Below the pieces are notes generated by a model that was not told the origin of the DNA, did not search any database, and saw only the letters and a program-made list of their open reading frames with translations. From positions 32,138-96,137 of the forward strand of contig JAGPDB010000002.1 of NCBI GenBank assembly GCA_018057765.1: a stretch of DNA of 64,000 bases, given 5' to 3'. This document shows positions 5,088 through 35,591 of this stretch, one piece after another (position 1 is the first letter of the stretch; each line of letters opens with the position of its first letter). The DNA comes from Acidimicrobiia bacterium (GTDB lineage Bacteria > Actinomycetota > Acidimicrobiia > IMCC26256 > JAGPDB01). The translations under genes were made by a program, and so were the position numbers.

Positions 5088-5132
5088 ATTTCCTCAAAAG
5101 ACTCTAAGGTCTGTACTTGCCGCGCAGTTTAT

Positions 5133-5170
5133 CCATATATGGGTAAATTTTGCAGGGACGGACCTTGTAG
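5133..5170. repeat. Copy a of the conserved intergenic hairpin motif (…atatgggtaaattttGCAGGGACGGACCTTGTag)
   Basis: Near-identical to the 8826-8860 copy, including about 20 nt of 5' flank. Stem gcaggg/ccttgt with loop ACGGA. Confidence 0.6.
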
Positions 5171-5206
5171 ATCCTTGTAGAGCTTGTACCCTACAACTTG
5201 ACAAAC

Positions 5207-5938
5207 TTAGAGTTTGGCTACTTGACCAAATTCCAATTCAACTGGTGTTTCGCGCCCAAAAATATCAACAAGTACTTTAAGTGTATTCTTATCAATATCA
5301 ATATCTGAAATTGCACCATTGAAATCTGCAAAAGGACCAGTAGTAACTCGCACTTGTTGTCCAACTTCGAAATCTAAACGAGGATGAGATTTAACTGCAG
5401 CTGCTACTTGTGTTTTCTCACCAGTATCACCACTACCCAAAATATTTTCTACTTCTTTACGGCTTAACGGATTTGGTTTTGAATCAGCACCAACGAAACC
5501 AGTAACACCAGGTGTGTTACGAATCACGTACCAAGTATCATCATCAAGATTCATACGAATCAAAACATATCCTGGAAAAACTTTTTTCTTAACAATAGTT
5601 TTCTTGCCATTTTTAAATTCAATAACGTCTTCCATAGGAACGACTATTTCGTGGATACGCTCTTCAACATTCATAGAACGCATACGAGTCTCTATATTTT
5701 GCTGAACACGGTTTTCGTATCCTGCATATGAATGAAGTACATACCATTTACCTTTGCGGTCATATGGAGAAATGATAATTTCGTCTTCGTCTTCATCATC
5801 ATCACTTGAAACCACATCAACAAGTTCAGCAGCATCATCAAAAGCAACTTCGCCCTTATCAATTGTTTCGGGTTCAACGAACGCAGTTCCGTCTGCTTCA
5901 TTGATTTGATCGGTTTCGTTTATAGTTGTTTCTTCCAT
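5207..5938 (-). CDS. nusG: Transcription termination/antitermination factor NusG, with an acidic N-terminal extension
   Basis: An NGN domain (WYVLHSYAGYENRV) and a KOW region (FEVGQQVRVTTGPFADFNGAISDID). Lies downstream of secE. Confidence 0.95.
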   Translation of the reverse strand: MEETTINETDQINEADGTAFVEPETIDKGEVAFDDAAELVDVVSSDDDEDEDEIIISPYDRKGKWYVLHSYAGYENRVQQNIETRMRSMNVEERIHEIVVPMEDVIEFKNGKKTIVKKKVFPGYVLIRMNLDDDTWYVIRNTPGVTGFVGADSKPNPLSRKEVENILGSGDTGEKTQVAAAVKSHPRLDFEVGQQVRVTTGPFADFNGAISDIDIDKNTLKVLVDIFGRETPVELEFGQVAKL

Positions 5939-5972
5939 TTTCTTTCCAATATCCTTCTAGATTTTTAAATAA

Positions 5973-6344
5973 TTATTTACTGTAAATTATATTTGCTAAT
6001 TTTTCAGCACCGTAATCAGTTCCAAGGATTAATATTGTAACAAGAACTATGCATACAAGTACAATAATGGTTGAATTTACCACTTCTTTACCGCTAGGCC
6101 AAGATACTTTTTTGAGTTCTTGCCATGCTTCTTTGAAAAAGTTTATAGATTTTTTGATGACATTTACTTTGGGAGCATTAGGATTTTTCGGTGGACGCTT
6201 TTTTGTGGCAGCATTCTTTTTCATATTTGCTCGTTGAGAATCTGCATCCATTCCCATTTTTGTGGTCATGCGACGCATCTCGCGGTTCATTGGTTCTTCA
6301 GGTGATGTCATAAGTGAATTCATTTTAGTACGCAATGAGCCCAA
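5973..6344 (-). CDS. secE: Preprotein translocase subunit SecE, with an N-terminal extension
   Basis: A C-terminal single TM helix with the conserved FFKEAWQELKKVSWPSGKEVVNSTIIVLV segment. Positioned immediately upstream of nusG. Confidence 0.85.
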   Translation of the reverse strand: MGSLRTKMNSLMTSPEEPMNREMRRMTTKMGMDADSQRANMKKNAATKKRPPKNPNAPKVNVIKKSINFFKEAWQELKKVSWPSGKEVVNSTIIVLVCIVLVTILILGTDYGAEKLANIIYSK

Positions 6345-6472
6345 TAACCTGATTAGTTTTGCATTTTTTAGACTTTATCTAAAACATTTATAAAAATAAC
6401 GATAAGATTGGCGATTCTGTAACATCAAGCTCAACTGTCCTGCTAATTAAAAGACAAATTGATAGCCAACAT

Positions 6473-7147
6473 TTATTTTTTGGTTGAAGCCATTGAAAGG
6501 TTTTTTAATGCTACTCGTATTGCAGATATAGCTTTATCTACTTCAAAGTCACGCACTAATACCATAATCTCATTTAGTGTTGTGTATATTTCTATTACCG
6601 AAATACCTTCCCAAGCTAAAATCCTGAGTGGGAATTGCAATACACCTGTAGTTTCAATTTGACCATGTGTGCGTTGCAGAGAAATACCAGTCAGATCGGG
6701 GATGATGTTGACGATTTCTTCATTTTTTAATTCAATTTCTAAAGTCGATTGTAGTGATTTACTTGTTATTATTGATGTCTCATTAAACCCTTGTGTGAAA
6801 ATAAATACAGACGCGAAGTTAGTTTCCAAATTTTTTGAGATCTTTGCCAACTTTGTTAATAGCTCTGATGAATTTTTGACAGTCATTTCAAATAGGTCAG
6901 ATCGAAGTCCAAGGTTTGCTAAATAATCGGCCGGATTGACTTGATAGTAGGGTTTCATTTGGGAAACGTAACGCTGCAGAGCTATAACTACCGATCCCTG
7001 GGTAATTGATTTTCGCAATTCATTTTGTATTTGTGGCTGTATCTTGCGCGCCAAAGAAGAAAGGTTAATCAGCTTTTCGGTTAATGCTTCGCGCATATAA
7101 GGCGACTGGTTAACTATTTCTTCAACACTTTGTGAGATTGATATCAT
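6473..7147 (-). CDS. Hypothetical protein (about 224 aa)
   Basis: The ORF extends to 7213, but the plausible start is MISISQ (ATG at 7145-7147). No family recognised. Confidence 0.55.
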   Translation of the reverse strand: MISISQSVEEIVNQSPYMREALTEKLINLSSLARKIQPQIQNELRKSITQGSVVIALQRYVSQMKPYYQVNPADYLANLGLRSDLFEMTVKNSSELLTKLAKISKNLETNFASVFIFTQGFNETSIITSKSLQSTLEIELKNEEIVNIIPDLTGISLQRTHGQIETTGVLQFPLRILAWEGISVIEIYTTLNEIMVLVRDFEVDKAISAIRVALKNLSMASTKK

Positions 7148-7268
7148 GTATATTATTATACAGACACTATTAGAATTGTACAATATGTATAAATAATTGA
7201 TTCTTATCATCATTTCGCCTTTAATAACTTATACAAGCTACGAGCTTGTGGTATTTAAGGACGAGATT

Positions 7269-8810
7269 ATGGTTACTAAGAAGAAGAAAAGAACGAAACC
7301 AATTTTTATACGTGATACTGAAGGCATAGTTAGCAAAAAACTTGCTGAGTATCTTTTAAGTCTGCGCAAAACTGGTGAAGTTGATCAGACTCCAGTACTC
7401 ACTAAAACAAAAGCGGTTGCTTGGGCTAAAACACATACTACTTTTCCTCAACGACATTTGGACAGGTATGAACTTGGTCTAGTTGAAGAACAACTGAGAG
7501 GTCATTTTGATATCCGTTATTCAAGTACAAAGCTAGTTGAAGTTGCCGAATATGTATATAAAGTGCGAAGTGTTTACGGGATGAACCTTAGGCAATGTCG
7601 CGATTTTCTTTCGAGTCATTTCGTTGCGAGCAGACCAGCAGTACAAGACGCCTTAAATGCTGCGATTATGAATTCATTCCAACTTTCAAGAGATCTACCT
7701 TTTTGGGATCAAGCTCAGTATGGAAAATTTGAATACCTGTGCAAGAATTTAGCGGATGAACAAAAAATAGACACTCGGCTTGGTTGGGAAAGACACGTGT
7801 TCACCCAGGTACAAAACTATATATTCCAATGTCTACATATGGCTTCTCCCAGAAATGATGCTCGATACAAAATAGCTCCTGATGAGCTTAAAAGGTTTAG
7901 GCCAATAATCGAAAACGAGCTAAGAGCACTAGTAGATCGCAGTCGCGATGCTGGACAAGAACAACTTGTTGAACTCACAAAAAGAATAATAGAAATTAGC
8001 TCATTTCGGTCAATAGATTTTTCAGGATTTGATCTTGCAGTAGCTTTCATGTCGCAATTTGATCTACCTAATTTTGAGCTTTATGCGAATCTAAGATTAT
8101 TCATATCTCAACCCGAGAGTTTAAAAGCGGTTCAGAAATTTACTGAATTTGTTAAAGATTTATCGCCAGAAGAATTGGTTGAAAGTTTTAGACAGATAGC
8201 GCCCATACATCGTCATGGTTCCAGTGCTGTTGTGCTTGCGAACCTAATTAAGAGTAATGCCTTAACCCCAGAACAGTCTATTGCATTTGCAGAATTTGCT
8301 GTTCAAGAGTGGGCTGGATTCCCAAAATATAATCATGAGAAAGCAGACAGACTATTCAATTTTGGAATGAGTGGCGAGTTGGATGCATTTAAAGATTCTA
8401 ATAGTCAAGCATACGAAGCATTTATGCTATTTTCTGTTCTTAGAAAACAACCGACAGAGGATTGGGATAAAATCCCCCGAAGTACAGGGCCAAATCCTGC
8501 GTTTGATGTGCTTGTGAATAGTTTTCCAGAATATGTTGAGAAATTAATCGATGCCAACTTTGTCCCAGAGCAAGAGGAAATTAGTACCGTAGCTAAGGCA
8601 TTTGGTTTAGATAGCGATGATCCCGCCGTTACTAATGTTTTACAACAATTAGTGACTCATCCTAATGCCAGTGACGTATTAGCTAGCCTTCAAGTTCGCA
8701 GAGCAGACAGGGAAGCTAAATCCAGTGCCATTCGAGCATCCATATTACAAGAAGGAGTTACGTCCTCAATCCAAGCCAGCTCAATAGAAGCCTTACCAAT
8801 AACCCACTAA
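7269..8810 (+). CDS. Hypothetical protein (about 513 aa)
   Basis: Start MVTKKKK at 7269 with an AAGGA RBS. A long ORF with no recognised family. Part of the block between secE and tRNA-Trp. Confidence 0.6.
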   Translation: MVTKKKKRTKPIFIRDTEGIVSKKLAEYLLSLRKTGEVDQTPVLTKTKAVAWAKTHTTFPQRHLDRYELGLVEEQLRGHFDIRYSSTKLVEVAEYVYKVRSVYGMNLRQCRDFLSSHFVASRPAVQDALNAAIMNSFQLSRDLPFWDQAQYGKFEYLCKNLADEQKIDTRLGWERHVFTQVQNYIFQCLHMASPRNDARYKIAPDELKRFRPIIENELRALVDRSRDAGQEQLVELTKRIIEISSFRSIDFSGFDLAVAFMSQFDLPNFELYANLRLFISQPESLKAVQKFTEFVKDLSPEELVESFRQIAPIHRHGSSAVVLANLIKSNALTPEQSIAFAEFAVQEWAGFPKYNHEKADRLFNFGMSGELDAFKDSNSQAYEAFMLFSVLRKQPTEDWDKIPRSTGPNPAFDVLVNSFPEYVEKLIDANFVPEQEEISTVAKAFGLDSDDPAVTNVLQQLVTHPNASDVLASLQVRRADREAKSSAIRASILQEGVTSSIQASSIEALPITH

Positions 8811-8825
8811 TGTACAGTTTATGTA

Positions 8826-8860
8826 GATATGGGCAAATTTCGCAAGGACGGACCTTGCAC
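8826..8860. repeat. Copy b of the conserved intergenic hairpin motif (atatgggcaaatttcGCAAGGACGGACCTTGCac)
   Basis: Perfect 6-bp stem gcaagg/ccttgc around loop ACGGA. The flank is shared with the 5133-5170 copy. Confidence 0.6.
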
Positions 8861-8876
8861 AATCAGACAATACAGT

Positions 8877-10040
8877 TTAAAGGCCGGGCTGATGTGGTGT
8901 AGTAGCCAGAGTGGTAGGTGGTGTAGTTGCGGGTGGTTGAGTTGTATGAGGAATTTCTTGCGTTGCAACAGTTGATTCCCCACCATCACTCCAAGGTTGG
9001 TGGTGAGGTTTCTCTGGTATGACCATACTTGGATCATGTGGAGGATTTTTTGGTCGGTTGTTATCTGGTAATAGTGATGGTTCGCCCTCTGGATCTGCAA
9101 AACTACGTTTGGTATTAGGCGAATTTGGGATATGATGTCCTGAAGTTCCCTCAGTATCGTTAAGTTCAAATGTTGAAAGACGATTAGCATCTATAGAAGA
9201 TGGGCGTGGGCTCTGATGAGAGGCTACAAGCCGGGGATAACTAAATTTCTCAGGTACACCACCAAAAGTTGATGGTTCAATTATTATAGTGCGCATAGCC
9301 TTGCCATTCTCACCTATATCTTCATTGTCAATACTTACACCATCGAGCTTGTGAGCATAATCAAATACCAAGCTACCTGAATTAGCCTCAATAAGCTGGC
9401 GTACAATATCTTTATGGTCAAGACCCTCAAACTTTTCTATGTTTTTTAATACCGAAAGCCCATTACCCGCAACTATAAGCCTTCGCGCAATTTCACCATG
9501 ATATTTAGCATCAAAATTTTCTATACCCACGGCAGCTTCAAAGCCAACACCAGCATCAATTGCACTTTCAACAACAGACATTTGATCTAATTTATCGAAT
9601 ATGTTCATATTATTAATTACAAAACTGAATTCTCGTTTTTGCATTAAATGATCTGCAAGTTCAGCTGTTAGATTTTTGAATCCTTCTATATATTTTTTAA
9701 CATCATTGACATAGCCATTTTCTGTCAAAAATATCGCAATCGCATTATGGTCCGATTCAGGAAAGTATTTGATCCCTGGTGCTATGAACTCTCCATAGCC
9801 ACCAACTATGAGACCGACTGCTATCTCTGCATCTAGGGAACTAACTTTTTCGTAACTATATTCCTCTAGCTTATATGCTACTGCCCACCCTTGTTTTAGT
9901 GCGATAAGCCTATGAGCAATATACTTTTGATCTTCTGGTGAATATCTAGAGACATCGATTGATAATCTTTCATAATCTCCATTGACTAATCTTATATCCG
10001 CTTGTTCTCTTGGTATTGTCATCCCATTAGCATACAACAA
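8877..10040 (-). CDS. Hypothetical repeat protein (387 aa) with about 7 internal roughly 24-aa repeats and a Pro/Thr/His-rich C-terminal tail
   Basis: Repeats of the form xxxIAxxLIxxGxGxxVxxNxxKF (for example HRLIALKQGWAVAYKL, ARRLIVAGNGLSVLKNIEKF, VRQLIEANSGSLVFDYAHKL). The tail reads TTQPPATTPPTTLATTPHQPGL. Confidence 0.65.
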   Translation of the reverse strand: MLYANGMTIPREQADIRLVNGDYERLSIDVSRYSPEDQKYIAHRLIALKQGWAVAYKLEEYSYEKVSSLDAEIAVGLIVGGYGEFIAPGIKYFPESDHNAIAIFLTENGYVNDVKKYIEGFKNLTAELADHLMQKREFSFVINNMNIFDKLDQMSVVESAIDAGVGFEAAVGIENFDAKYHGEIARRLIVAGNGLSVLKNIEKFEGLDHKDIVRQLIEANSGSLVFDYAHKLDGVSIDNEDIGENGKAMRTIIIEPSTFGGVPEKFSYPRLVASHQSPRPSSIDANRLSTFELNDTEGTSGHHIPNSPNTKRSFADPEGEPSLLPDNNRPKNPPHDPSMVIPEKPHHQPWSDGGESTVATQEIPHTTQPPATTPPTTLATTPHQPGL

Positions 10041-10506
10041 ACATATACTTTACGTCAAAAGGGCGTATTGTGATACTTTAAGTCGTAAATACAGGAATAA
10101 TGTGAAGTGCGTATATTAGTTTACTAAACCTGGTGTAGATGTTACTGCCACTGTCGTATCAGTCAACGCACTTCTCGGTACATAGTTCATTTTTCTTACA
10201 TTTGGTAAAGCAGGCTCTGCAGGCATACCTAGATGCCTTTGTGAATCTAATCCAGCTGACACACCGCTCACAGCTGGAGATGTTGCTTCTTGATGTGGAC
10301 TTGGTATATTTGCTTGAGACATATTAACACTCTACATACATAAGACTTAATATGTCAAGAATACAGAAATTTTAGTTTGTATATCGTAAAGTTTAATGTT
10401 AGAAGTAATACAAACAGCAGTAATATAAGAATATATATCTTACATCACATATGGTGTATATACATTAAGTTGACATTAAAGAACGATTTCTTCTATTCTT
10501 ATCTTC

Positions 10507-11322
10507 ATGCTAAAAACACTATCTAAGGGATATTATGGACCATTTAAAGCCACACGCTTGATTGGTAGGGGCCACTCTGGAAAATTAGCTACCACACTCA
10601 GAAATTATCGCGATTTAGATTATTCACATGCATTTAACCTGATAGGAACTAATCATGGAGATCAGGTTGCGCAAAATATTATGAGCTTTATGGCTAAACG
10701 CCATGGAATAATTGTTAAAGAACTAATTCGTCAAAAGAAATTTACTGAGCTACTCAAAAATATAAAAATATTGAATAGTGAAGTTACTAGCAGGATCGAG
10801 CCAAACGAATTAGCGAAGCTCGCTATTGACTTAGATGATGTCGAAGGGTTAAGTGAATTAGATAAGACAAAGCGTATTGGTAAACTAGTAAATTATCTAA
10901 GCAACTTTGATACCTATAAATTAGATAAATATGTTGCTCAAGCCATTATCGACGCTGGACTAATTAAACAGTTTTCTGAGAATTTAAATAAATTTTTTGA
11001 TCTCGATTTAAAAATAGTGCTCCAATTATTTGAAGCGGGATACGGCGAAAAAGCCTCACTAAATAATCGTAGCTTTAAAGACGTAAGCATCAAAAAAGAA
11101 ATTCTTCCATATACTGGCCACGCCATCTATGGAATTCAAACCCCATCCTCCATAGAAGATGAAGAACCCATCCTGAGAATATTTACTGAAGATACTATGA
11201 TCCTGGACAGTTCAAATGCAGATACAGAAACACGATTTCTTGAATTTATGAGACATGCCAGTTCGCAAATAACTGATGGTGCAAATAAAATAGCCACAAG
11301 TTTTCAACTGACTAATCCTTAA
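10507..11322 (+). CDS. Hypothetical repeat protein (271 aa), paralogous to the 8877-10040 product by repeat type
   Basis: The same roughly 24-aa repeat family (YVAQAIIDAGLIKQFSENLNKF, LKIVLQLFEAGYGEKASLNNRSF). Confidence 0.6.
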   Translation: MLKTLSKGYYGPFKATRLIGRGHSGKLATTLRNYRDLDYSHAFNLIGTNHGDQVAQNIMSFMAKRHGIIVKELIRQKKFTELLKNIKILNSEVTSRIEPNELAKLAIDLDDVEGLSELDKTKRIGKLVNYLSNFDTYKLDKYVAQAIIDAGLIKQFSENLNKFFDLDLKIVLQLFEAGYGEKASLNNRSFKDVSIKKEILPYTGHAIYGIQTPSSIEDEEPILRIFTEDTMILDSSNADTETRFLEFMRHASSQITDGANKIATSFQLTNP

Positions 11323-11403
11323 TTTACACTAATAAGTTAATAGTTTCCTAAAATTATAAATCTGTGGACAACTTCGCTAAAGGCTAAACCTTAATACTTG
11401 CTT

Positions 11404-11523
11404 CGCAGGGCACAAGGGACCCAGAACTACCGTACCCCAACCAGGTTGGGGAAATAAATATATGCAGGACACAAGGGACCCAGAACTACCGTACCCCAAC
11501 CAGGTTGGGGAAATAAATATATG
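11404..11523. repeat. Two tandem 60-bp direct repeats that are degenerate copies of the 3' end of the adjacent tRNA-Trp (att-like pseudo-tRNA ends)
   Basis: The unit gcagg(g/a)cacaagggacccagaactaccgtaccccaaccaggttggggaaataaatatat occurs twice, followed by the real tRNA beginning gcagggcaggagggactcgaacccccaacc. Each unit has an internal perfect hairpin ccccaacc-a-ggttgggg. Confidence 0.75.
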
Positions 11524-11597
11524 CAGGGCAGGAGGGACTCGAACCCCCAACCGCCGGATTTGGAATCCGATGCGCTACCAATTGCGCCACTGCCCTT
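11524..11597 (-). tRNA. trnW: tRNA-Trp (anticodon CCA)
   Basis: The reverse complement reads AGGGCAGTGGCGCAATTGGTAGCGCATCGGATTCCAAATCCGGCGGTTGGGGGTTCGAGTCCCTCCTGCCCTG. Has a cloverleaf with TTCGAGT T-loop and anticodon loop TTCCAAA. Confidence 0.9.
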
Positions 11598-11761
11598 TGG
11601 TTCAGCAATTCATAATTTTAAGAAAGCTAAGTTAGTAATCTTAGCAACTATGACGCACTTAACGAATAACGTGCGGATGAATTATTATGAATTTCATAAA
11701 GTCCCATGTTAAGGTGACGATACCCATTCAAATCAAACAATAACTTAATCAAGGAATTAAA

Positions 11762-13834: not shown

Positions 13835-13841
13835 ATACTAT

Positions 13842-14810
13842 CTATCCTTCTTGACTAGACTTTTTAATATTTTTTCGGTTGACTATTGTTTTTACGATCA
13901 AAATTATAAGTCCAAACAAAATTATGAATGGGAATGTTGCTCCCAGGATTATTACGATTCCACCAAGTGAAGTCAATAACGACTTAGATGATTTATCCCA
14001 CGACTTTCCTAAAATCGATTTCGAACCCTCGTCTTGCGCTGATGAAGTTTCTCCTTTTTCAGTGAGAGTTACAGTTATTGTCGATAGCGATATTTGTTCG
14101 TTTAATAATTCTTGTTGACCTTTAGTATTTTCGATATCTGACTGTACATCGAATATTTGTTGCTGTATATCAAGAGCACTATTTGGTGTCGCCTTTTCAA
14201 GAGCAACGAGTAGAACCGCTTTTCGTTGTTCTAAAATTGCTAGTCGAGCAGTATAATCTTTTACGTTATATGACTCATCAAATGAATCTAGAGAAGAACC
14301 TGTTACTGTACCTAATTCACGTAGTGCAACTAATTGTTCATCTAATTTGTCGCTTGGAATTCGAACAGTAATAACCGCACTATGTAGAGTTGAATCATTA
14401 CTTTGAATATATCCTCCATCTTTTTTGATGATCAAGACAACTTTGTCATAGTTCTTTGTTAAAGAATTTTTATCAATAGTTATATCAATAGTTCCAGTTT
14501 TAACAATATACTTACTTAATGGGTCGCCAATATTTGACTGAGGTGCTTGCTCTGTAAGACCATTTTTAGTTTCGGAACCAGACTTAGACGTTTCAAAACC
14601 ACTGTCTTGGCTTGAACTGTTCGAATCATTTATACCAGGAATATCCTGCGCATCCGATCTTACACCAACTAATCCATCCTGATTCCTATAAGTAGACGGT
14701 GATGCTTTTTGCGAATCTTTTTCTGCACCCAATTCGTTTATTCCAACGAAATATCCAGATATTAATAGGAAAACTATTGCTGTACTTAATACTATTTTCT
14801 TCATGGCCAC
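13842..14810 (-). CDS. Membrane-anchored secreted protein, possibly DUF4349-like
   Basis: An N-terminal signal/TM segment, a central coiled-coil/Gln-rich region and a C-terminal TM anchor (GGIVIILGATFPFIILFGLIILIV). The family assignment is tentative. Confidence 0.55.
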   Translation of the reverse strand: MAMKKIVLSTAIVFLLISGYFVGINELGAEKDSQKASPSTYRNQDGLVGVRSDAQDIPGINDSNSSSQDSGFETSKSGSETKNGLTEQAPQSNIGDPLSKYIVKTGTIDITIDKNSLTKNYDKVVLIIKKDGGYIQSNDSTLHSAVITVRIPSDKLDEQLVALRELGTVTGSSLDSFDESYNVKDYTARLAILEQRKAVLLVALEKATPNSALDIQQQIFDVQSDIENTKGQQELLNEQISLSTITVTLTEKGETSSAQDEGSKSILGKSWDKSSKSLLTSLGGIVIILGATFPFIILFGLIILIVKTIVNRKNIKKSSQEG

Positions 14811-18324: not shown

Positions 18325-18349
18325 AGTTGACAGATAAAAATAGTATTAT

Positions 18350-21973: not shown

Positions 21974-22016
21974 TAATTCACTCAACTAAATATAACCTGA
22001 GTGCTATGTTTATTTT

Positions 22017-25018: not shown

Positions 25019-25029
25019 TGATATATTCT

Positions 25030-25724: not shown

Positions 25725-25825
25725 ACAATTAGGTTAGTGCGGATTTGTTATAAATTGTTGACTATTTAGCATATAGCAGTTGGGGTGTGAATATGAAAGC
25801 AAGTTCCTCACTCTCCTCTTGAGAG

Positions 25826-25870
25826 TTCGGCTACCAGAGTCGAACTGGTGACCTCATCCTGATCATGAAC
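25826..25870. repeat. Partial duplicate (30 identical bp) of the 3' half of tRNA-Thr, located 37 bp downstream of the intact gene
   Basis: ctaccagagtcgaactggtgacctcatcct at 25831-25860 matches 25902-25931 inside the tRNA. The flanks are also similar. Confidence 0.7.
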
Positions 25871-25892
25871 ACTGTCGCTCGAAAAGCGCAAT

Positions 25893-25968
25893 TGGAGCCT
25901 CCTACCAGAGTCGAACTGGTGACCTCATCCTTACCATGGATGCGCTCTGCCAACTGAGCTAAGGAGGC
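25893..25968 (-). tRNA. tRNA-Thr (anticodon GGU)
   Basis: The reverse complement reads GCCTCCTTAGCTCAGTTGGCAGAGCGCATCCATGGTAAGGATGAGGTCACCAGTTCGACTCTGGTAGGAGGCTCCA. CCA is encoded. Confidence 0.9.
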
Positions 25969-26029
25969 GAAGCAACAATAATACTAGAAAAACTTAAAGT
26001 ATCAAGATCTCTGAAAAGTGTCTATTTTT

Positions 26030-26524: not shown

Positions 26525-26677
26525 ATTTTCCTTTACTAGAAATATTTAGTTAGGTCAACCTTACTATCTATAATTAAATTAAAACAAACTCGGACAGTAT
26601 AAAACTTGTAAATGTACGTAAATTTCACCATATGCTAAGATGAACTAACAATAACTGTTATCAATTCAAGGAAGAAA

Positions 26678-28396: not shown

Positions 28397-28406
28397 TAAA
28401 TCAATT

Positions 28407-29123
28407 TTAAGAAAACCATCCAGCAATTGTACTTGTTACAAGATCATATTGATTTGTGACTAACAACAATCCTAATATTATCAATAACGCGCCGGTATAT
28501 TTTTCTACCTTCTGAGCAATATTTGCCAACTTTCCTATGAGCGAAGGGTAAGATGCTAGTAGTAAAGACACAACTAAGAAAGGTATTCCTATACCTAAAG
28601 CATATACGAATAAATAGATTGATCCTTCAAGTACTTGTCCAGAGCGAGAAGCTATTGCCAAGGCTGATCCTAATAAAGGACCAACGCAAGGTGACCATGC
28701 TGCGCCAAAAGCAATACCTAAAATAAATGGGCGCAATAATTTTAACTTTGGTGACAATTTTGGAAGTGATGTAATTAATCTTTTTTCACGACCGAACACT
28801 TTTTTGAAGAGACCTAGTAATGCTAGTCCCATAATAATTATGATGACTCCACCAACTATTTTTATGACTTCTTGAGCATCGCCTTTCGCAATACCTAATG
28901 CGCCAACGAGTGCACCAAGCGATGTGAATACAGCAGCGAAACCTGCAATGAAAATCAGAGTTGGGATAACTGGAGTTTTTGGCTTCTTACCTTCAGCTTG
29001 TTTCTCAGAGACATCGCCAGCAATCATACCCATGTATGCAGGAACTAAGGGAACGACACAGGGGGCTAAAAAACTAGCGATGCCGGCCCCTAGTTCTGCA
29101 AATATAATTGATGTTTCTAACAT
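28407..29123 (-). CDS. ccdA: Cytochrome c-type biogenesis protein CcdA (DsbD-family thiol-disulfide transporter)
   Basis: Six TM helices. Conserved Cys motifs LAPCVVPLVP and SPCVGPLLG. Confidence 0.85.
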   Translation of the reverse strand: MLETSIIFAELGAGIASFLAPCVVPLVPAYMGMIAGDVSEKQAEGKKPKTPVIPTLIFIAGFAAVFTSLGALVGALGIAKGDAQEVIKIVGGVIIIIMGLALLGLFKKVFGREKRLITSLPKLSPKLKLLRPFILGIAFGAAWSPCVGPLLGSALAIASRSGQVLEGSIYLFVYALGIGIPFLVVSLLLASYPSLIGKLANIAQKVEKYTGALLIILGLLLVTNQYDLVTSTIAGWFS

Positions 29124-29131
29124 TGTTTAAC

Positions 29132-30268
29132 CTAACTTCCAAATGTGAATGAATATAGTGCTATATTTTTTTGTTGAGCGCTGAAAGTTAAGATACCTTG
29201 GGTTATTTTTTTAGCATTAATGATATTTACTAAATCTGGTGAAGATACTTCGACACAAGTATCACCGTTACTCTCAACTTTTATATCTTTACCACGCATG
29301 TTTTTTGGAATAGGCTTACCATCAAGTTCGACTTTAAGCTTTGCAACTTGCGATTTATCTGCATTAATATTTTCAGCTACTAAGTTAACTTCAGCAGCTT
29401 TAAAATTAAGCAACATTTTCGAACCAACTTCTTGGAGTACAGTTCGGTCAAGTTGAGAATCTATATTTCCAAAGTATGTAATATTATTAAGAGTTGGTTT
29501 TACTTCTTTTTCAACTTTAGTTATGCCAGAGTTTATATTTGACTTTCCACGGACTGGATTTAAATATAATTCTGGTGTTATATCTTCATTAGAAGTTGTT
29601 TCTTTTGCTCCTGGGAAAATTGCCCGTGGTGAGTCTTTATCTACACCAAGCAATGCTCTAACAACATCTTCTGTTTCTTCGTATCGACCCTCTCCAAAAT
29701 GCTCGTAACGTAATTGTCCTTTTTTATCTGTAATATATTTTGCCGGCCAAAATTCATTCTCAAAGTTATCCCAGTTACTCATATTGTCATCAAATAATAC
29801 CGGCCAATTAACCTTATATTTTTTTGCAGCTTTTTCAACATTAGAATGTATTTTCTCAAAATCAAATTCAGGAGAATGAACACCAAGAATAATGAGGCCG
29901 TCTTTTTCATAGCGGTCATATATTGCGCGTAAGTATGGAAGTGTTCTTTGACAATTGATACAAGAATAGGTCCAAAAATCATATATCACTACAGAACTAT
30001 TTATTTTTTCTTGACTAATACCTTCAGTATTTAACCAACCTAATGAGTCATCAATATTAGGAACTTTAGTTTTAATCACTTCTAGATTATTAGCATCAAC
30101 TTTTGGAAGAACATCTTCAGACTTTACATTTCGCGAAAAGATAACAGCAAATGATCCCGCTATTAATACAGCGACAAGAATAGAAATTGGGATGATGTTG
30201 AATTTCTTCTTATTATTCGAGGCTGTTGCGGGATTTGTAGTTCTTGTGTCTTTATTTTCTGCAGTCAT
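29132..30268 (-). CDS. Membrane-anchored thioredoxin-like (TlpA/ResA-type) thiol:disulfide oxidoreductase with an extra roughly 150-aa C-terminal domain
   Basis: An N-terminal TM helix. A CxxC active site in FWTYSCINCQRTLPYL with a redoxin fold. The stop lies 8 nt from the ccdA start. Confidence 0.8.
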   Translation of the reverse strand: MTAENKDTRTTNPATASNNKKKFNIIPISILVAVLIAGSFAVIFSRNVKSEDVLPKVDANNLEVIKTKVPNIDDSLGWLNTEGISQEKINSSVVIYDFWTYSCINCQRTLPYLRAIYDRYEKDGLIILGVHSPEFDFEKIHSNVEKAAKKYKVNWPVLFDDNMSNWDNFENEFWPAKYITDKKGQLRYEHFGEGRYEETEDVVRALLGVDKDSPRAIFPGAKETTSNEDITPELYLNPVRGKSNINSGITKVEKEVKPTLNNITYFGNIDSQLDRTVLQEVGSKMLLNFKAAEVNLVAENINADKSQVAKLKVELDGKPIPKNMRGKDIKVESNGDTCVEVSSPDLVNIINAKKITQGILTFSAQQKNIALYSFTFGS

Positions 30269-30314
30269 ATTGTATTTACGTTTCAGCTACTCACACTGGA
30301 TTAAATATGACGAT

Positions 30315-30380
30315 ACGACAGGGTCCGTCCCTGCAATAACTGGACATTTTGACTATATTTGACAGAGTCCGTCCCTGAAG
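30315..30380. repeat. Two tandem copies (d and e, minus orientation) of the conserved intergenic hairpin motif
   Basis: cagggtccgtccctgc at 30319-30334 and cagagtccgtccctga at 30363-30378. These are reverse complements of GCAGGGACGGACCCTG and TCAGGGACGGACTCTG. Confidence 0.6.
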
Positions 30381-30708
30381 AGCTAGTGATCGTTGGTTAA
30401 AATATTCGTTCTATATCGCTCTATATAATTAGTATTTTCCGTTGTTTTTGTAAAGTTTAATTGTAAATTAGAAACATATGTACGAAGTAAAATGCTTGTC
30501 AAATATGTCGTACACATTCAAATAAATTTCTTCAACAAATACTTTGTGACAATTAACCCACAACACGATATAAAGTAGGTTCAAATTCATAAACCGAGGT
30601 CGCAGATCTTGTATTGCAACAACTCATATAAAACACCAACTGATTCTTAATGATACGAACTGGGTGATTAGCACAATATATATATTAAGAATTACTATTG
30701 AACTTCTA

Positions 30709-31446
30709 CTATGTATTACTCGCTTTGCTCAGATGATCAGATGCTCCTAAATATAGGGGTGGAAATTTTGCGTTTAAAGTTTTATCAATATTTATCAAAG
30801 GGATAATACTATTTTCTAATAATGAATTCAAAATATTTACTGGGAGTATATCGTCGGTATGTAGGTTCAATGCAATAGCTTCTATATTTCCATTCACCAC
30901 TTCTACAATTTTATCTATTACATCATCTTCATTGTGAGTATCAAAATATTGTTTATCAATGCCACGACAAGAAAGAGCCAAAGGTACGCCAGTTGAATAT
31001 TTAATCTCCATAATTGACTCTAATGCAATGTGCTCATTTATCCAATGTGGTTCTATTACAAGATCTGATGAATATGGTTTAAATTCTAGTTCTGAAGTGT
31101 AGCTGTGAAGTAAGCATTTCTCAGCACCAAAGTTTTTTATGATTTCTGTAGCTAATGAAATTAATTTTTTACTTTTAATATCCAAAACTAAAAATATATT
31201 TGCTGACTTCATCTCATTCAGTACTATATCAAGTTCGAGATTATTTGGTGCTTGTATGTTCATAAATTCATAAAATGAAAGTGGATGACCAATATATGGC
31301 TTTCCATTTTTATCAATAGATAAATCTATTTCTAAGCTTTTCTTTGCCTGCTTCGCTCTATCTAAAATTTCTCGATTTAGTACACGTGTATGAAAATACG
31401 TAAAAGATTTTTGTTTACTTATGATCTCATTAATAGGGTTTGTCAT
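30709..31446 (-). CDS. Hypothetical protein, possibly a GDPD/PLC-like phosphodiesterase (TIM-barrel)
   Basis: 245 aa. An N-terminal FHTR..E.D....GKPYIGH pattern is reminiscent of glycerophosphodiester phosphodiesterases. This is a weak assignment. Confidence 0.45.
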   Translation of the reverse strand: MTNPINEIISKQKSFTYFHTRVLNREILDRAKQAKKSLEIDLSIDKNGKPYIGHPLSFYEFMNIQAPNNLELDIVLNEMKSANIFLVLDIKSKKLISLATEIIKNFGAEKCLLHSYTSELEFKPYSSDLVIEPHWINEHIALESIMEIKYSTGVPLALSCRGIDKQYFDTHNEDDVIDKIVEVVNGNIEAIALNLHTDDILPVNILNSLLENSIIPLINIDKTLNAKFPPLYLGASDHLSKASNT

Positions 31447-31449
31447 TAT

Positions 31450-31911
31450 TCACCTTATATAGGTGCCACTATCACAAACAACCAAAGTGTTAACATCTTC
31501 GAGCACTCCTTTAGCGCTTGCTGTATCTCCTACGTTTAATGATGGTATTTTTATTGCATCTTTATCACAGTTAGACATGCCAGGTGATAGATAAAGTGTA
31601 TAACTTATATTATTTGAAAGAATATTGATTATACCGCTACTATCTGTTTGTAATGGCTTCAAATCAATTAAAGTTACTTTACCGATTATCTCTAATTCTT
31701 TTCCAAGCGATGGATCTAAATGAGGGTTATCAGCAGTATTTATTGGCGCACTAGAGTAGAAACTTATTTTTGTAGTCGTTGTGGAATTTTTTATCGCTGT
31801 TTTTGATTTCGTTTGAGATTCATTTTCATTATTAGAAACTAGAAAAAGAACGATAAACATTATAGATACAACAATAATTGCAGCAGCTAAAAAGAGAATT
31901 CTTTTCTTCAT
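31450..31911 (-). CDS. Hypothetical membrane-anchored or secreted protein (153 aa)
   Basis: An N-terminal TM/signal helix. Separated by 3 nt from the upstream gene start, so likely operonic. Confidence 0.5.
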   Translation of the reverse strand: MKKRILFLAAAIIVVSIMFIVLFLVSNNENESQTKSKTAIKNSTTTTKISFYSSAPINTADNPHLDPSLGKELEIIGKVTLIDLKPLQTDSSGIINILSNNISYTLYLSPGMSNCDKDAIKIPSLNVGDTASAKGVLEDVNTLVVCDSGTYIR

Positions 31912-31948
31912 AGATTTATCTTAGTGTCCATTATGAAGAGAACAAAGT

Positions 31949-32112
31949 ATCACGCCAACACTTCAGTGGATACATCACACTGAAATAAAAAATACAGAGA
32001 GTGGGCCAAGCGGGTTTCCATAGGGAAACCCGGTAACAAACTTAAATCGTCGAATCGCGCCAACACTTCAGTGGATACATCACACTGAAATAAAAAATAC
32101 AGAGAGTGGGCC
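31949..32112. repeat. Pair of 58-bp direct repeats (one mismatch) flanking a 46-bp spacer with a perfect 9-bp-stem hairpin. The second repeat overlaps the 3' end of tRNA-Tyr.
   Basis: atc(a/g)cgccaacacttcagtggatacatcacactgaaataaaaaatacagagagtgggcc occurs at 31949-32007 and 32053-32112. The spacer contains cgggtttcc-ata-gggaaacccg. Confidence 0.75.
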
Positions 32113-32187
32113 GGGTAGGATTCGAACCTACGTAGCTCTCGCAGCAGATTTACAGTCTGCCCCCTTTGGCCGCTCAGGTACCGACCC
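32107..32187 (-). tRNA. tRNA-Tyr (anticodon GUA), type II with a long variable arm
   Basis: The reverse complement reads GGGTCGGTACCTGAGCGGCCAAAGGGGGCAGACTGTAAATCTGCTGCGAGAGCTACGTAGGTTCGAATCCTACCCGGCCCA. No CCA is encoded. Confidence 0.85.
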
Positions 32188-32299
32188 TCTGTAAGGTTTA
32201 CAGGTTATCAAATATATGTATGTATCGCTCGAGTCGTAGAGGTGAATTTGTGGTGATTGTTGTTTAGACTCTAGTATTCAAGTTATATAAGGAGAAGAT

Positions 32300-32791
32300 A
32301 TGCCAAGTTTTGATGTTGTTAGCGAAGTTGATATTCAAGAGGTAAGAAATGCTGTCGATCAAACTGCTCGAGAAGTCGGTACTAGGTTTGATTTTAAAGG
32401 TACCGAATCAAAAATCGAGTTTGATGGAAAAGGTGAAATATCAATTAATTCTGTATCTGAAGATAGAGTTAAAGCTATAATTCAAATCTTAGAAGAGAAG
32501 TTTGTAAAACGCCATGTTTCATTAAAATCGCTAGACCACCAGAATGGTGAAGAAGCTGCAGGTGCTCGTTGGAAACAAATTACTAAATTAGTTCAAGGTC
32601 TGACTACTGAAAAAGCAAAAGAAATAGGAAAATATATAAAAGAAAATGGTACAAAAGGATTGCAACACCAAATCCAAGGCGATCAACTTCGTATTACTGG
32701 TAAAAAGCGTGACGATTTACAGAATGCCATTGCAATGTTAAAAGAACATGATTTTGGAATTCCTTTACAATTTGAAAACTTTAGAGATTAA
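32300..32791 (+). CDS. yajQ: YajQ-family (UPF0234) nucleotide-binding protein
   Basis: 163 aa. Conserved N-terminus MPSFDVVSEVDIQEVRNAVDQTAREVGTRFDFKG. Has an AAGGAG RBS. Confidence 0.9.
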   Translation: MPSFDVVSEVDIQEVRNAVDQTAREVGTRFDFKGTESKIEFDGKGEISINSVSEDRVKAIIQILEEKFVKRHVSLKSLDHQNGEEAAGARWKQITKLVQGLTTEKAKEIGKYIKENGTKGLQHQIQGDQLRITGKKRDDLQNAIAMLKEHDFGIPLQFENFRD

Positions 32792-32811
32792 CTTATTGCA
32801 GCAATGTCCTA

Positions 32812-32840
32812 ATTTGGCAAGGACGGACCCTGCAAACCCT
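32812..32840. repeat. Copy c of the conserved intergenic hairpin motif (aatttgGCAAGGACGGACCCTGCaa)
   Basis: Stem gcaagg/ccctgc (one mismatch) around loop ACGGA. Lies between the yajQ stop and the stop of the MidA-like gene. Confidence 0.6.
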
Positions 32841-32893
32841 GAAAACTACGGCAAACCTTTTGCAAGATTAGCCACATTTTAATCAAAGTATCT

Positions 32894-33967
32894 CTATACT
32901 TGGCGAACAGCACTGAGCACCTGAAAAGAACCCAATCCATTTTCATCTAAAAGTACTTCTCTTTCATTCATGAAACTTTTGGACATATCAACATCAGATC
33001 CATGAGTTGAAAATTGAATTAGTTGATCATATGAACTCTGGTGTTTCTGTGGAACACAAAATAAATCAATATCATTATCATTCAACCATTGGTTTTGTGT
33101 TTGTATCTTTATTTTGGAGAAACCTTCTCTATCAAGTAATACGTATAAATCATTACTTGTAACATCACAAGTGATGTCTCCTTTCTTGCCCTTTACTATT
33201 GCATTTAATACATTGTCAACGCCAACTATTCTTTGATTACTGGAATACATCCTTAACCAATTCTCATCTGCCATATCAGGTATTGCTTTAATATAATCAA
33301 AAAATAATAATTGTAAATCAGTTACATTCATTGTGGCCTGCATAAGTTCATCTATCCACGAAGCTAAACCAACGTGTAAAGGTATTCTAAAATCTCCAAT
33401 ATTATGTGCAACATTAGATCGTGAAAGGTTATCTATATCTCCCGATATTCCAAAAAATGCTGCATACGCTGGTTTGTCAAGATAATCTGGCTCAAAGTTT
33501 GAATACACTTCGCTAACCTTGCCGATATTAAAAATTAGATTATCTAAAAGTTCATTTGCAATTACTAAGGTAGGCTTGTCACACTCTGGAATAGTTCCAT
33601 GGACTGACCAAGAGAATTTAGGTGACAATTTACTTAATTTTTCAGTTACAGCTGCTCTATGTTTCGCAGATATATCAACAAGATAAAATTCTATTTCACT
33701 TGCGTTTTTCATATTAGCCCTAGAAATAGATGCAGCCAATGAGCCCGGCCCACAACCAGCATCAATAACTATTGCCCCACTTGGATTTTTTAGATTATCA
33801 TACCAATCATCAATATAATCAGCAAGGACACGACCAAACAAGTCGCCAACTTCTGGTGACGTTAAAAAATCTTTAGTACGCCCCGAACCTCCACCTTTAG
33901 TATAAAAACCATCGTCACCGTAAAGTACCTCTTGCATATAATCTGCAAAATTATTTTCAATGTCCAT
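32894..33967 (-). CDS. MidA/NDUFAF7-like (DUF185) SAM-dependent methyltransferase. A homologue of the mitochondrial complex I assembly factor 7.
   Basis: The DUF185 signature DFLTSPEVGDLFGRVLADYID. The class I MTase glycine-rich loop VIDAGCGPGSLAASI. 357 aa. Sits immediately downstream of nuoN of the first nuo operon. Confidence 0.75.
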   Translation of the reverse strand: MDIENNFADYMQEVLYGDDGFYTKGGGSGRTKDFLTSPEVGDLFGRVLADYIDDWYDNLKNPSGAIVIDAGCGPGSLAASISRANMKNASEIEFYLVDISAKHRAAVTEKLSKLSPKFSWSVHGTIPECDKPTLVIANELLDNLIFNIGKVSEVYSNFEPDYLDKPAYAAFFGISGDIDNLSRSNVAHNIGDFRIPLHVGLASWIDELMQATMNVTDLQLLFFDYIKAIPDMADENWLRMYSSNQRIVGVDNVLNAIVKGKKGDITCDVTSNDLYVLLDREGFSKIKIQTQNQWLNDNDIDLFCVPQKHQSSYDQLIQFSTHGSDVDMSKSFMNEREVLLDENGLGSFQVLSAVRQV

Positions 33968-34019
33968 TTACAAAGTCTAATGTGAATAACAAGGCCTGTA
34001 AGGACAGTCCCTCTATCCT

Positions 34020-35591
34020 CTATTTTACTAGGACTATTAATTCACCGACTCTGGCAATAATTCCGGGAAAGAAACCGAGCAAAATTGTAACTCCAGCACA
34101 TAATACTATCGCTACTCGAAGTGCTGGAGTTATTACGACAGTAGATTTTTTATCAGCCAACAAAAGAGATCCTTCACTCGTCTCTGGCTGATCAAATAAA
34201 TCTAATTCAGCTGGGTCTTCAAGCCACATGCGCTTTATAATTCCTGCATAATATGTAAATGCAACAACTGAAGTTACAGCTGCAACAATAGCGAGAGTAA
34301 TAGAAGCTACAGAATTGATTTCCAATGCTGCTTTAAACATCACAAATTTTGCAAACCAACCAGCCAAAGGTGGAACACCAGCTAAAGAAAATAAGAAAAT
34401 TGTCAACATTAGAGACAAGAAAGGTTCACGTCTTCCTAGACCATTATATTTTGCTATATCGCCAGAATTAATTCGTCGAGAAATTGCAATAATGCTCGCA
34501 AAGGCTCCTAAGTTAGCGAATAAATAAATCGCTAAATAAATATAAGTTGATTGAACTGCGCTGTTAAAAAATTCATTAGTTCCCAAGGTCGACGTTTTTG
34601 AATTATCGCCATAACCCAATAAAGCAATTGGCAATAAAATAAATCCACCTTGAGCAATTGAGGAATACGCTAACATGCGAACAATATTTGTTTGTTTTAA
34701 TGCAGCAAAGTTTCCGATAATTAAAGATGCTACAACCATTACTGACAGTATTGGCATCCAAATTTCTCTTTCATTTAAAAATGCATACTGGCCTAAAGCT
34801 AAGATACCGACAAAACCAGCACCCTTTGAAAGTACACTTAAAAATGCAGTAACTGGTGTAGGTGCCCCTTCATATACATCTGGTGTCCATTGATGAAAAG
34901 GAACTGAAGAAATTTTGAAAGCAAAACCAATTACGGTAAAGATCACTGCTAAGTGAGCCAAAATAGGGATGTTGTTGCCATAAAAATATTTTTGAATATC
35001 AACAAATTTTGTTGAACCTACAAAACCAACGACAAAGCTCATCCCATAGAGCATTATTGCAGAACTCATAACACCAATTAAATAATATTTTATTCCAGCC
35101 TCATTAGATTTAAGATCACGTTTTCGCCAAGATGCCAAGACGAATGTTGGAATAGTAACAGTCTCGATAGAAACAAATAGAGAGATCAAATCTCGCGACG
35201 ATGAAAGGGTGCTCATACCCAATACTGACATTGTAAGCAAGAACCAAAACTCGGCCTGGAAATAATCTCCTTCGCGAATATAATCCCCACTTAGTAGCAC
35301 GGAAATATACGCACCAACTAAAAAGAATGCTTTAAAAGCCAGCGCTTGATTATCAACAATGTACGAACCGCCAAACATTGATCTGTTTGTTCCATCAATA
35401 GCTAAAGTTATTACTGGAATCAATGCCACTAAAAAAGTTAATGCAGCTATATTTGATGTTTTCCATGATGAACGTTTCTTTAAGAAAAGATCAGCAATCA
35501 AAATTGTTAATGCACCAATTATAATAACGACTTCTGGCGCAAATGCGTGCCAGTCAATCATTGGCGATTTCTGTATAACTATAGCTAACAT
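34020..35591 (-). CDS. nuoN: NADH-quinone oxidoreductase subunit N (cluster 1)
   Basis: A 523-aa polytopic antiporter-like subunit. Last gene of the 11-gene nuo array. Confidence 0.85.
   Translation of the reverse strand: MLAIVIQKSPMIDWHAFAPEVVIIIGALTILIADLFLKKRSSWKTSNIAALTFLVALIPVITLAIDGTNRSMFGGSYIVDNQALAFKAFFLVGAYISVLLSGDYIREGDYFQAEFWFLLTMSVLGMSTLSSSRDLISLFVSIETVTIPTFVLASWRKRDLKSNEAGIKYYLIGVMSSAIMLYGMSFVVGFVGSTKFVDIQKYFYGNNIPILAHLAVIFTVIGFAFKISSVPFHQWTPDVYEGAPTPVTAFLSVLSKGAGFVGILALGQYAFLNEREIWMPILSVMVVASLIIGNFAALKQTNIVRMLAYSSIAQGGFILLPIALLGYGDNSKTSTLGTNEFFNSAVQSTYIYLAIYLFANLGAFASIIAISRRINSGDIAKYNGLGRREPFLSLMLTIFLFSLAGVPPLAGWFAKFVMFKAALEINSVASITLAIVAAVTSVVAFTYYAGIIKRMWLEDPAELDLFDQPETSEGSLLLADKKSTVVITPALRVAIVLCAGVTILLGFFPGIIARVGELIVLVK

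Follow-up and report, generated by a model that had tools for sequence, protein, structure and literature searches.

What kind of element is a short hairpin that recurs, almost unchanged, between the genes of a single bacterial genome? The question is raised by a 64,000-nucleotide stretch of DNA from an Acidimicrobiia bacterium (GenBank assembly GCA_018057765.1, contig JAGPDB010000002.1), referred to here as the window. An earlier note described in it a family of intergenic stem-loops with covarying stems and an invariant loop, and named as candidates a REP-like repeat family, a protein-binding or RNA-processing site, and a stabiliser of transcript 3' ends. The analysis presented here indicates that the stem-loops are very probably repetitive extragenic palindromic (REP) elements, i.e., short non-autonomous mobile DNA repeats, spread by a REP-associated tyrosine transposase (RAYT) encoded in the same genome. 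The first of the candidates is thus supported by a cognate RAYT gene in the same metagenome-assembled genome (MAG), which is flanked by inverted copies of the motif. The other candidates are not needed to explain the data and would describe secondary effects at most.

The core GGACGGAC has five exact occurrences in the window: three on the plus strand, at 5156, 8846, and 32821, and two on the minus strand, at 30323 and 30367. From dinucleotide-preserving shuffles of the window 0.28 copies are expected, and none of 100 shuffles reached five; overall, the expectation for the 64 kb amounts to 0.06-0.28 copies. The five copies reported earlier are therefore borne out in their coordinates and their core. 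Four of them match the 16-mer GCARGGACGGACCYTG exactly and the fifth matches it at two mismatches, while an imperfect palindrome of 17 nt, GCARGG-ACGGA-CCYTGY (6-bp stem, 5-nt loop), is read at all five sites (Table 1). A weaker sixth copy, claimed at about 34000-34023, was dropped from the family for the reasons given in the table. A further GCARGGACGGACCYTG-like sequence with two mismatches, located at 52201 within a coding region, is probably a chance match.

All five copies lie in intergenic DNA, which makes up ~9.3% of the window, and they occupy four spacers, an arrangement with a chance probability of ~7e-5 (calculated for four loci). Convergent gene ends flank three of the four loci, namely YceI-family gene/nusG, a pair of genes without family assignment, and yajQ/Methyltransf_28 gene. 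At the fourth locus, a ResA-like thioredoxin gene is preceded by two copies arranged as a direct tandem. The earlier description of the copies as intergenic and mostly placed between convergent ends is thus confirmed. The repeats lie 20-65 nt past stop codons, may take either orientation relative to the nearest gene, and are also found in divergent and 5' regions. The sequences directly after the hairpins read AGATCC, ACAATC, AAACCC, and CGTATC. An intrinsic terminator was rejected because no U-run follows the hairpin at any copy, and a scan of the window found no terminator-like hairpin with a T-run overlapping any of the five. This agrees with the earlier statement that the stem-loops are not classical intrinsic terminators.

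Table 1. Repeat copies in the window and hairpins flanking RAYT genes of related loci (positions are those of the window unless a locus is named).
Feature	Position	Strand	Sequence and structure	Neighbourhood
REP copy a	5125..5170	+	tail 5125-5151 (CAGTTTATCCATATATGGGTAAATTTT); hairpin 5152-5168 GCAGGG-ACGGA-CCTTGT	convergent ends of YceI-family gene 4551-5087 (+) and nusG 5207-5938 (-)
REP copy b	8815..8860	+	tail 8815-8841; hairpin 8842-8858 GCAAGG-ACGGA-CCTTGC, perfect 6-bp stem	convergent genes 7197-8810 (+) and 8877-10040 (-), neither with a Pfam or NCBIfam match
REP copy c	30318..30352	-	hairpin 30318-30334 GCAGGG-ACGGA-CCCTGT; tail AAAATGTCCAGTTATT 30335-30350	start of the ResA/TlpA-like thioredoxin gene (29132-30268, -) lies 51 nt downstream
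REP copy d	30362..30378	-	degenerate, hairpin only: TCAGGG-ACGGA-CTCTGT; without the family 5' tail	tandem partner of copy c in direct orientation; lies 44 nt upstream of it (minus strand)
REP copy e	32799..32835	+	tail 32799-32816 (GCAGCAATGTCCTAATTTG region); hairpin 32817-32833 GCAAGG-ACGGA-CCCTGC, A-C mismatch at pair 4:14	102-nt spacer between convergent yajQ (32300-32791, +) and Methyltransf_28 gene (32894-33967, -)
Not a family member	33990..34023	.	AAGGACAGTCCCT; core differs, no family flanks, fold no better than shuffles	
Flanking hairpin	L275		TTGCAGGGCCTGGCCTAG	
Flanking hairpin	L277		TTAAGGGTGAGACCCTTAA	
Flanking hairpin	L278		CAAGGGTCGGACCCTTG	
Flanking hairpin	L279		GCAGGGTGACACCCTGC	

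The repeat unit is longer than its hairpin. It measures ~38-46 nt and consists of an AT-rich 5' tail, the 17-nt palindrome, and a final AA. In 18 aligned copies, the conserved part starts ~18 nt before the hairpin and ends 2-3 nt after it, with the consensus tail cCTTTTGTCCAaaTTTT followed by GCARGGACGGACCYTGY and AA. Copies a and b form one sub-family with a longer variant tail, CAGTTTAT..A.ATATGGGYAAATTTY; their shared 5' flank had been recognised before, and the units are ~83% identical over 46 nt. In total, the conserved tail covers 18-27 nt and is present on one side only. Copies in the window organism stand alone or are arrayed in direct tandem; the array periods are 44, 25, and 21 nt, the latter two being found outside the window (two copies with a 25-nt period in L170/L181 and three copies with a 21-nt period in L208). 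Contigs of 28-33% GC (L196:993-1060, L164:4017-4080, L099:1-70) contain tandem partial units, ATTGCAAGGACGCT, before a full REP, which suggests slippage or abortive copying at the hairpin.

Further copies were found in metagenomes. When reference genomes were scanned with the 16-mer, chance matches in genomes of high GC content dominated; among the matches listed, Saccharibacteria/Patescibacteria loci were in excess, some of them with tandem or inverted copies. A scan of viral contigs returned 25 single, mostly coding, chance-like matches and no link to phages. With the AT-rich flanks added to the pattern, a metagenome scan yielded 113 loci in two sets. The first set shares samples, coverage, GC content, and tetranucleotide signature (r = 0.95-0.99) with the window. 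The second consists of numerous contigs with a GC content of 40-45%; their version of the motif is TTGCAAGGACGGACCTTGCAA, mostly arranged as inverted doublets. The DNA of the window organism thereby provides 19 distinct copies at 14 loci, the loci outside the window having been fetched by the motif itself. At these other loci, most copies are intergenic on a crude open reading frame (ORF) call, and several were scored inside an ORF. The proteins of the window are labelled 'MAG: ... [Acidimicrobiia bacterium]' in their NCBI records, as are NusG relatives at 62-79% identity. The GC content of the window is ~36%, which is unusually low for a genome carrying this label.

In several metagenome loci, ORFs of ~200 aa lie between two repeat copies; they belong to the Pfam family Y1_Tnp, and their sole NCBIfam match is 'REP-associated tyrosine transposase', below the model cut-off. 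A tblastn search over all fetched loci located such a gene in L217 (ERZ724516 NODE-59); the RAYT is also encoded in L265-L270. The gene specifies a 196-aa HUH/Tyr Y1 transposase (Pfam PF01797) and is located outside the window, between ftsK and an RNase J gene. The surrounding gene order, S15, PNPase ... dapB, RNase J, ftsK, is typical of Actinobacteria. In L217 and L265-L270, the gene is flanked at 55-58 nt on either side by GCAGGGACGGACCTTGT/C in inverted orientation, with the spacing REP(+), 58-nt gap, RAYT, 39-42-nt gap, REP(-). The layout in L217 is RNase J gene, REP(-) directly after the stop codon, RAYT, REP(+), and ftsK. A 99%-identical protein, recorded as 'transposase [Acidimicrobiia bacterium]', is found on contig JBAOGY010000005.1 of assembly GCA_037046625.1, and contig JBAOGY010000002.1 of this assembly carries the YceI-nusG region of the window. 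Thus, the repeat of the window and the RAYT flanked by the repeat belong to one binned genome. Furthermore, the RAYT loci and the window contigs come from the same samples with similar coverage, and in tetranucleotide composition they correlate with the window at 0.955 (L217) and 0.98-0.988 (the longer RAYT loci L265-L270).

The assignment of the enzyme is based on motifs, profiles, and fold. In 30 homologues, neither the HUH motif (N75, H76, H78) nor the Tyr motif (R136-Y137-I-H-x-N-P) varies, and both align with their counterparts in E. coli TnpA_REP (PDB 4ER8), the structure of which is entitled 'REP associated tyrosine transposase bound to a REP hairpin'. Among NCBIfam models, NF047646, 'REP-associated tyrosine transposase', matches best and is the only credible hit. 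An AlphaFold model of the protein (pLDDT, the predicted local distance difference test score, 88.9) has 4ER8 as its best fold match (E 2e-7), followed by ISDra2 and IS608 TnpA at ~1e-4. Taken together, the profile and the predicted fold support placement in the RAYT branch rather than with the IS200/IS605 TnpA proteins, albeit not at equivalog level. More than 3,000 proteins are relatives of this RAYT sub-family, and given that some are annotated 'REP element-mobilizing transposase RayT', the protein family itself is already known.

All assemblies examined contain one RAYT locus, which is syntenic in a sister species (L275), where a RAYT of 59-60% identity occupies the same site (ftsK - RAYT - RNase J - dapB ... 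PNPase). Synteny in two species is what a resident gene maintained by vertical descent would show, and a RAYT of this type, resident and vertically inherited, has been described for these systems (PMC5581495). This bears on the proposal that the repeats are ends or miniature derivatives, comparable to palindrome-associated transposable element (PATE)-like miniature inverted-repeat transposable elements (MITEs), of an autonomous insertion sequence (IS) of the IS200/IS605 family, and not a domesticated RAYT system. In favour of this proposal are the membership of the protein in the Y1_Tnp family and the significant fold matches to the IS608 and ISDra2 transposases. In addition, the left ends of IS608 have a stretch between the cleavage site and the hairpin, which the conserved tail 5' of the hairpin recalls, although this likeness serves as a lead only. 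However, the hairpins flanking the gene are inverted and not direct, no tnpB is present at the RAYT locus, and TnpA_REP rather than IS608 is the best fold and profile match. The single conserved locus in two species with proteins of 59-60% identity, and the large excess of repeats over the gene in the DNA covered, also speak against an autonomous element. This origin of the repeats is therefore considered very improbable.

The pairing of RAYT genes with hairpins extends beyond the window organism. In L275, L277, L278, and L279, the RAYT homologues were taken from a protein search and the motif was not used in their choice; in four of four, the RAYT is flanked by an inverted hairpin pair with related arms and different centres (Table 1). 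In the motif-fetched Saccharibacteria or candidate phyla radiation (CPR)-like loci L108, L187, L253, L244, L212, and L175, a RAYT gene is flanked by the identical core. The CPR-like loci contain inverted doublets with 28-51-nt spacers. RAYTs paired with the GCARGGACGGACCYTG core are 39-57% identical to each other. In L277 (2844-12413), the RAYT with its own hairpins lies beside defence-like genes, namely DUF2779, SduA_C, GmrSD, a T5orf172/MUG113 protein, and a DEAD helicase.

Several further features were observed at the CPR-like loci. Inverted doublets occur in L167, L171, L177, L178, L188, L195, L203, L210, L248, and L259 (e.g., L178:901-976), all of them contigs with 40-45% GC, of which some are Saccharibacteria according to their titles. 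A perfect DnaA-box 9-mer, TTATCCACA (within AAAAAGTTATCCACAG), is present in the spacer or flank of these doublets in 22 of 136 flanks, and doublets bearing the box are distributed over many places along one 497-kb contig (Ga0209748_1000001). In the CPR-like loci L152-L264 (e.g., L152:798-850, L212:8831-8880), the outer arms read TTGCAA and resemble a -35 hexamer. TANNNT hexamers peak 15-17 nt outside TTGCAA on both sides in ~1/4-1/3 of 68 copies. Judging from these hexamers, the CPR-like repeats may carry or create outward-facing promoters. The TTGCAA/TANNNT arrangement was not seen in the window organism.

The promoter-like hexamers could also be read in favour of a different proposal, in which the repeats are double-stranded operator sites of a palindrome-binding regulator and mark a regulon. 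The 6+5+6 palindrome with its invariant centre would suit such a site, and copies c and d are located upstream of a resA/ccdA-like operon and downstream of promoter-like hexamers; the TANNNT peak outside the TTGCAA arm in the CPR-like loci points in the same direction. Nevertheless, at three of the four window loci the repeat is enclosed by convergent 3' ends, a setting in which a promoter would not be expected, and the neighbouring genes have no common function. Moreover, the centre is asymmetric, and in many genomes the repeat flanks a transposase gene. An operator function is hence extremely improbable.

The occurrence of one RAYT sub-family with an identical GCARGGACGGACCYTG core in the ~1-Mb genomes of Saccharibacteria/CPR and in a low-GC Acidimicrobiia lineage can be read in two ways. 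Saccharibacteria live as epibionts on Actinobacteria, so the shared core could record a transfer of the whole REP-RAYT system between the episymbiont lineage and its host phylum. Alternatively, an unusually rigid protein-DNA recognition code may have been kept over deep divergence. This pair of explanations is put forward tentatively, and is more likely wrong than right. If true, a transfer between phyla would be contrary to the view that REP-RAYT systems are inherited only vertically, and either explanation would mean that these systems thrive in the most streamlined bacterial genomes.

Comparison with relatives shows that the repeat is specific to its lineage. Three of the four relatives sampled, L280, L281, and L282 (20.8, 20.8, and 4.9 kb examined), contain no copy of the window repeat; their NusG proteins are 79-84% identical to that of the window. 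In L280, the convergent Methyltransf_28/yajQ pair is separated by a 5-nt spacer without a repeat, where the window has its spacer with copy e. The target site of copy e is not definable from this empty site, as the spacers cannot be aligned. A further relative, L283, has its own variant, AGAGGGTCGGACCCTCT (7880-7900, 14560-14640), including an inverted doublet right after rplL, and in L275 the hairpin of this species lies around the syntenic RAYT (L275:9928-10630). Since L275 and L283 carry different hairpins of the same build, there is turnover of the repeat sequence from one related species to another, with the RAYT locus remaining in place. L282, the closest relative recovered (NusG 84% identical, GC 36%), has an intrinsic terminator, GAGCGGGTCGCAAGGCCCGC followed by TTTTTT, between convergent genes at 3290-3355. 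This textbook example shows U-tract terminators to be in use in the lineage, in contrast to the junctions of the window that bear REPs.

In the earlier note, covarying stems together with an invariant loop were taken to point to a conserved RNA or DNA hairpin rather than chance, as would result from structural selection. Covariation was assessed in the 19 distinct copies from 14 loci, all from DNA of the window organism. Of the six stem pairs, three are invariant; two show changes in only one partner, and a single pair (4:14) in both. The counts at pair 4:14 (G-C 7, G-T 6, A-T 3, A-C 3; Fisher p = 1.0) are exactly what independent transitions give, and in a pair-count control the observed covariation score was reached by 260 of 500 shuffles. 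The fetch pattern allowed all four R/Y combinations, so the null result is not an ascertainment effect. With its sole two-sided variable pair behaving independently, the stem does not covary, and the argument for structural selection fails. The near-identity of the copies is what is expected of a recently spread repeat that is recognised by one enzyme, and it should not be taken for structural covariation. Recognition by a single enzyme and recent common descent account for the invariant loop and the almost invariant stem, rather than selection on RNA structure.

Folding energies are in line with this result. The hairpins fold at -1.5 to -6.1 kcal/mol as DNA and at about -6 to -10 kcal/mol as RNA, and the RNA energies are mostly no better than those of shuffles (z +0.35 to -2.2). 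Copy a, which has the same sequence in four other assemblies of the species, reaches only -1.5 kcal/mol as DNA. In the predicted minimum-energy fold of copy e, an upstream TGTCC is paired with GGACG and the hairpin is not formed. A match in Rfam, which the earlier note had considered as a trivial explanation of the motif, was not obtained: nothing relevant was found in the whole window at gathering level or in the tandem pair c/d at E <= 10.

These data also bear on the proposal that the repeats are RNA elements selected at transcript ends, i.e., terminators without a U-tract or barriers to 3'-5' exonucleases that stabilise the upstream mRNA. Copies located 20-65 nt past stop codons, convergent junctions at three of four loci, the lack of a canonical terminator in the repeat-bearing spacers, and RNA folds at -6 to -10 kcal/mol would all be compatible with this role. 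Secondary roles of this type at mRNA ends are known for the REPs of E. coli. On the other hand, the stem lacks covariation and contains A-C mismatches at chance rate, the fold energies are mostly like those of shuffles, and the repeats occur in both orientations relative to the nearest gene as well as in divergent and 5' regions. A role in stability does not account for an invariant loop with a conserved 18-27-nt tail either, and it leaves the RAYT association unexplained. Finally, the repeat is missing from the orthologous junction in L280, and the close relative L282 has an ordinary terminator of hairpin and T-run. Selection at transcript ends is thus an improbable origin of the repeats.

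Three other candidates were tried and rejected. The guanidine-II riboswitch (mini-ykkC, RF01068), suggested by the ACGR-like loops and the tandem pair c/d, consists of two tandem hairpins upstream of genes for guanidine exporters or related proteins. It has an ACGR tetraloop and not the pentaloop ACGGA; its model gave no match, and the gene downstream is thioredoxin-like. Sites of the CsrA/RsmA type, with GGA in the loop, do not fit the two orientations of the copies or their prevalence at 3' ends, and the motif is accounted for by its association with the RAYT. A DNA uptake sequence or Chi-like site is not in line with the motif's restriction to intergenic DNA and its link to a transposase gene.

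Reading the stem-loops as REP elements leads to a mechanism that is modelled on TnpA_REP and the IS200/IS605 enzymes. The repeat would fold into its hairpin when the DNA is single-stranded, e.g., on the lagging-strand template, and the RAYT would recognise the hairpin with the fixed ACGGA loop plus the adjoining tail. It would then cut and rejoin the strand, thereby moving copies into intergenic spacers that tolerate insertions, mostly just past the 3' ends of genes. If the transcribed hairpins had any effect on mRNA 3' ends, it would be a by-product or a later co-option.

Several points weigh against this interpretation. Cleavage and transposition by the RAYT are ascribed to it by analogy with the related enzymes. 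Its score with NF047646 is 36-46 bits, compared with a curated cut-off of 80 bits. By sequence, the similarity to known structures is weak: a single-sequence PDB search gave no match, and in the family-profile search 4ER8 is the sole match at E 0.18. No unpaired GTAG or CGTC end tag is present in the 18 aligned copies (...TTTT|GCAGGG, CCYTGY|AA); TGTAG is read in copy a only, by happenstance, and CGTC occurs only inside the loop and stem on the complementary strand. The inverted doublets typical of Pseudomonas and E. coli, known as REPINs (paired REPs that fold into a hairpin), were not found in the window organism except for the pair around the RAYT. No insertion polymorphism among strains was seen, the five window copies being fixed in every assembly examined. 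The genome-wide number of 130-230 copies is an extrapolation from five per 64 kb alone.

The window contains other features apart from the repeats. Two complex-I (nuo) operons lie side by side on the minus strand, at 34020-44576 and 46864-62286; one encodes 11 subunits and lacks nuoE/F/G, and the other encodes 14 subunits including NuoE, F, and G (Pfam D, E, F, G, N). The Methyltransf_28 (NDUFAF7-like) gene adjoins the first of these operons. ARAGORN called a 94-nt tRNA-Glu (25823-25916) overlapping a tRNA-Thr (25893-25968). Rfam supports only the tRNA-Thr (63.6 bits, 25896-25968), which was missed when the whole window was searched at gathering level; the tRNA-Glu is thus probably a spurious call. 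The cumulative GC skew falls steadily across the whole length of the window, which suggests a single replichore, and the NusG of the window has an N-terminal extension.

For genome annotation, the analysis explains a set of conspicuous conserved hairpins without a new class of RNA. A sub-family with an untagged REP and a fixed ACGGA loop in Acidimicrobiia and tiny CPR genomes widens the known host range, and it offers a compact enzyme-hairpin pair for the study of DNA recognition by HUH transposases.

Among known systems, the REP elements and bacterial interspersed mosaic elements (BIMEs) of E. coli with TnpA_REP are the obvious point of comparison. Both families consist of short extragenic imperfect palindromes in multiple copies, and both are associated with a gene for a HUH/Tyr Y1 enzyme, apparently a single one in the present system, that is flanked by inverted repeat copies. 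In contrast to E. coli REPs, the family described here has no GTAG at the foot of the hairpin, a shorter stem of 6 bp with a fixed 5-nt loop, and a conserved one-sided AT-rich tail of 18-27 nt. Its copies are arranged as singlets and direct tandems and not in the alternating clusters of BIMEs. The RAYT is ~15% identical to TnpA_REP over the fold alignment and 30-45 aa longer, and its host is an Acidimicrobiia MAG instead of a gammaproteobacterium.

The REPIN-RAYT systems of Pseudomonas (Bertels and Rainey; PMC3116915, PMC5581495) share with the present system a RAYT at a fixed locus, vertical inheritance, and flanking 16-mers that are repeated elsewhere. Their doublets are resembled by the inverted doublets of the Saccharibacteria/CPR-like loci with 28-51-nt spacers, whereas the window organism has such a doublet only around its RAYT. 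The defining measure of the Pseudomonas work is the whole-genome frequency of 16-mers, while copies were counted here in the window and the fetched loci. IS200/IS605 elements (IS608, ISDra2) belong to the same enzyme superfamily and probably share the chemistry, i.e., recognition of a single-stranded DNA hairpin and cleavage guided by adjoining bases. They have direct hairpins at their ends, move as complete units, are present in multiple copies, and in many cases encode tnpB, in contrast to the inverted hairpins and the syntenically fixed gene found here.

The GTAG/CGTC-tagged super-families (Di Nocera et al. 2013, PMC3733652) are similar in size, in their 5-9-bp stems with 4-5-nt loops and G-T pairs, and in their preference for spacers after convergent or unidirectional genes. 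The present family differs in having no unpaired tag at either end. In that survey, most REPs lie downstream of coding regions, in spacers of convergent and unidirectional ORFs, and G-T pairs are common in the stems (PMC3733652); the location and orientation of the repeats described here fit this picture. The host phyla surveyed are Proteobacteria, Cyanobacteria, Chloroflexi, PVC (Planctomycetes, Verrucomicrobia, and Chlamydiae), Chlorobi, Bacteroidetes, Spirochaetes, and Thermotogae, and neither Actinobacteria nor Saccharibacteria are among those named (PMC3733652). In the literature examined, REP-RAYT systems are thus assigned chiefly to Proteobacteria, with a small number of other phyla. 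Actinobacteria and Saccharibacteria are not mentioned in the RAYT and HUH-endonuclease literature examined either, and none of the top-ranked literature matches links REPs with CPR taxa or Acidimicrobiia. The REP-RAYT system of the window organism is thus of a known kind, and it differs from the described families in the repeat without an end tag, the fixed pentaloop, the one-sided tail, the direct tandems in place of REPINs, and the hosts, which are new relative to the literature examined.

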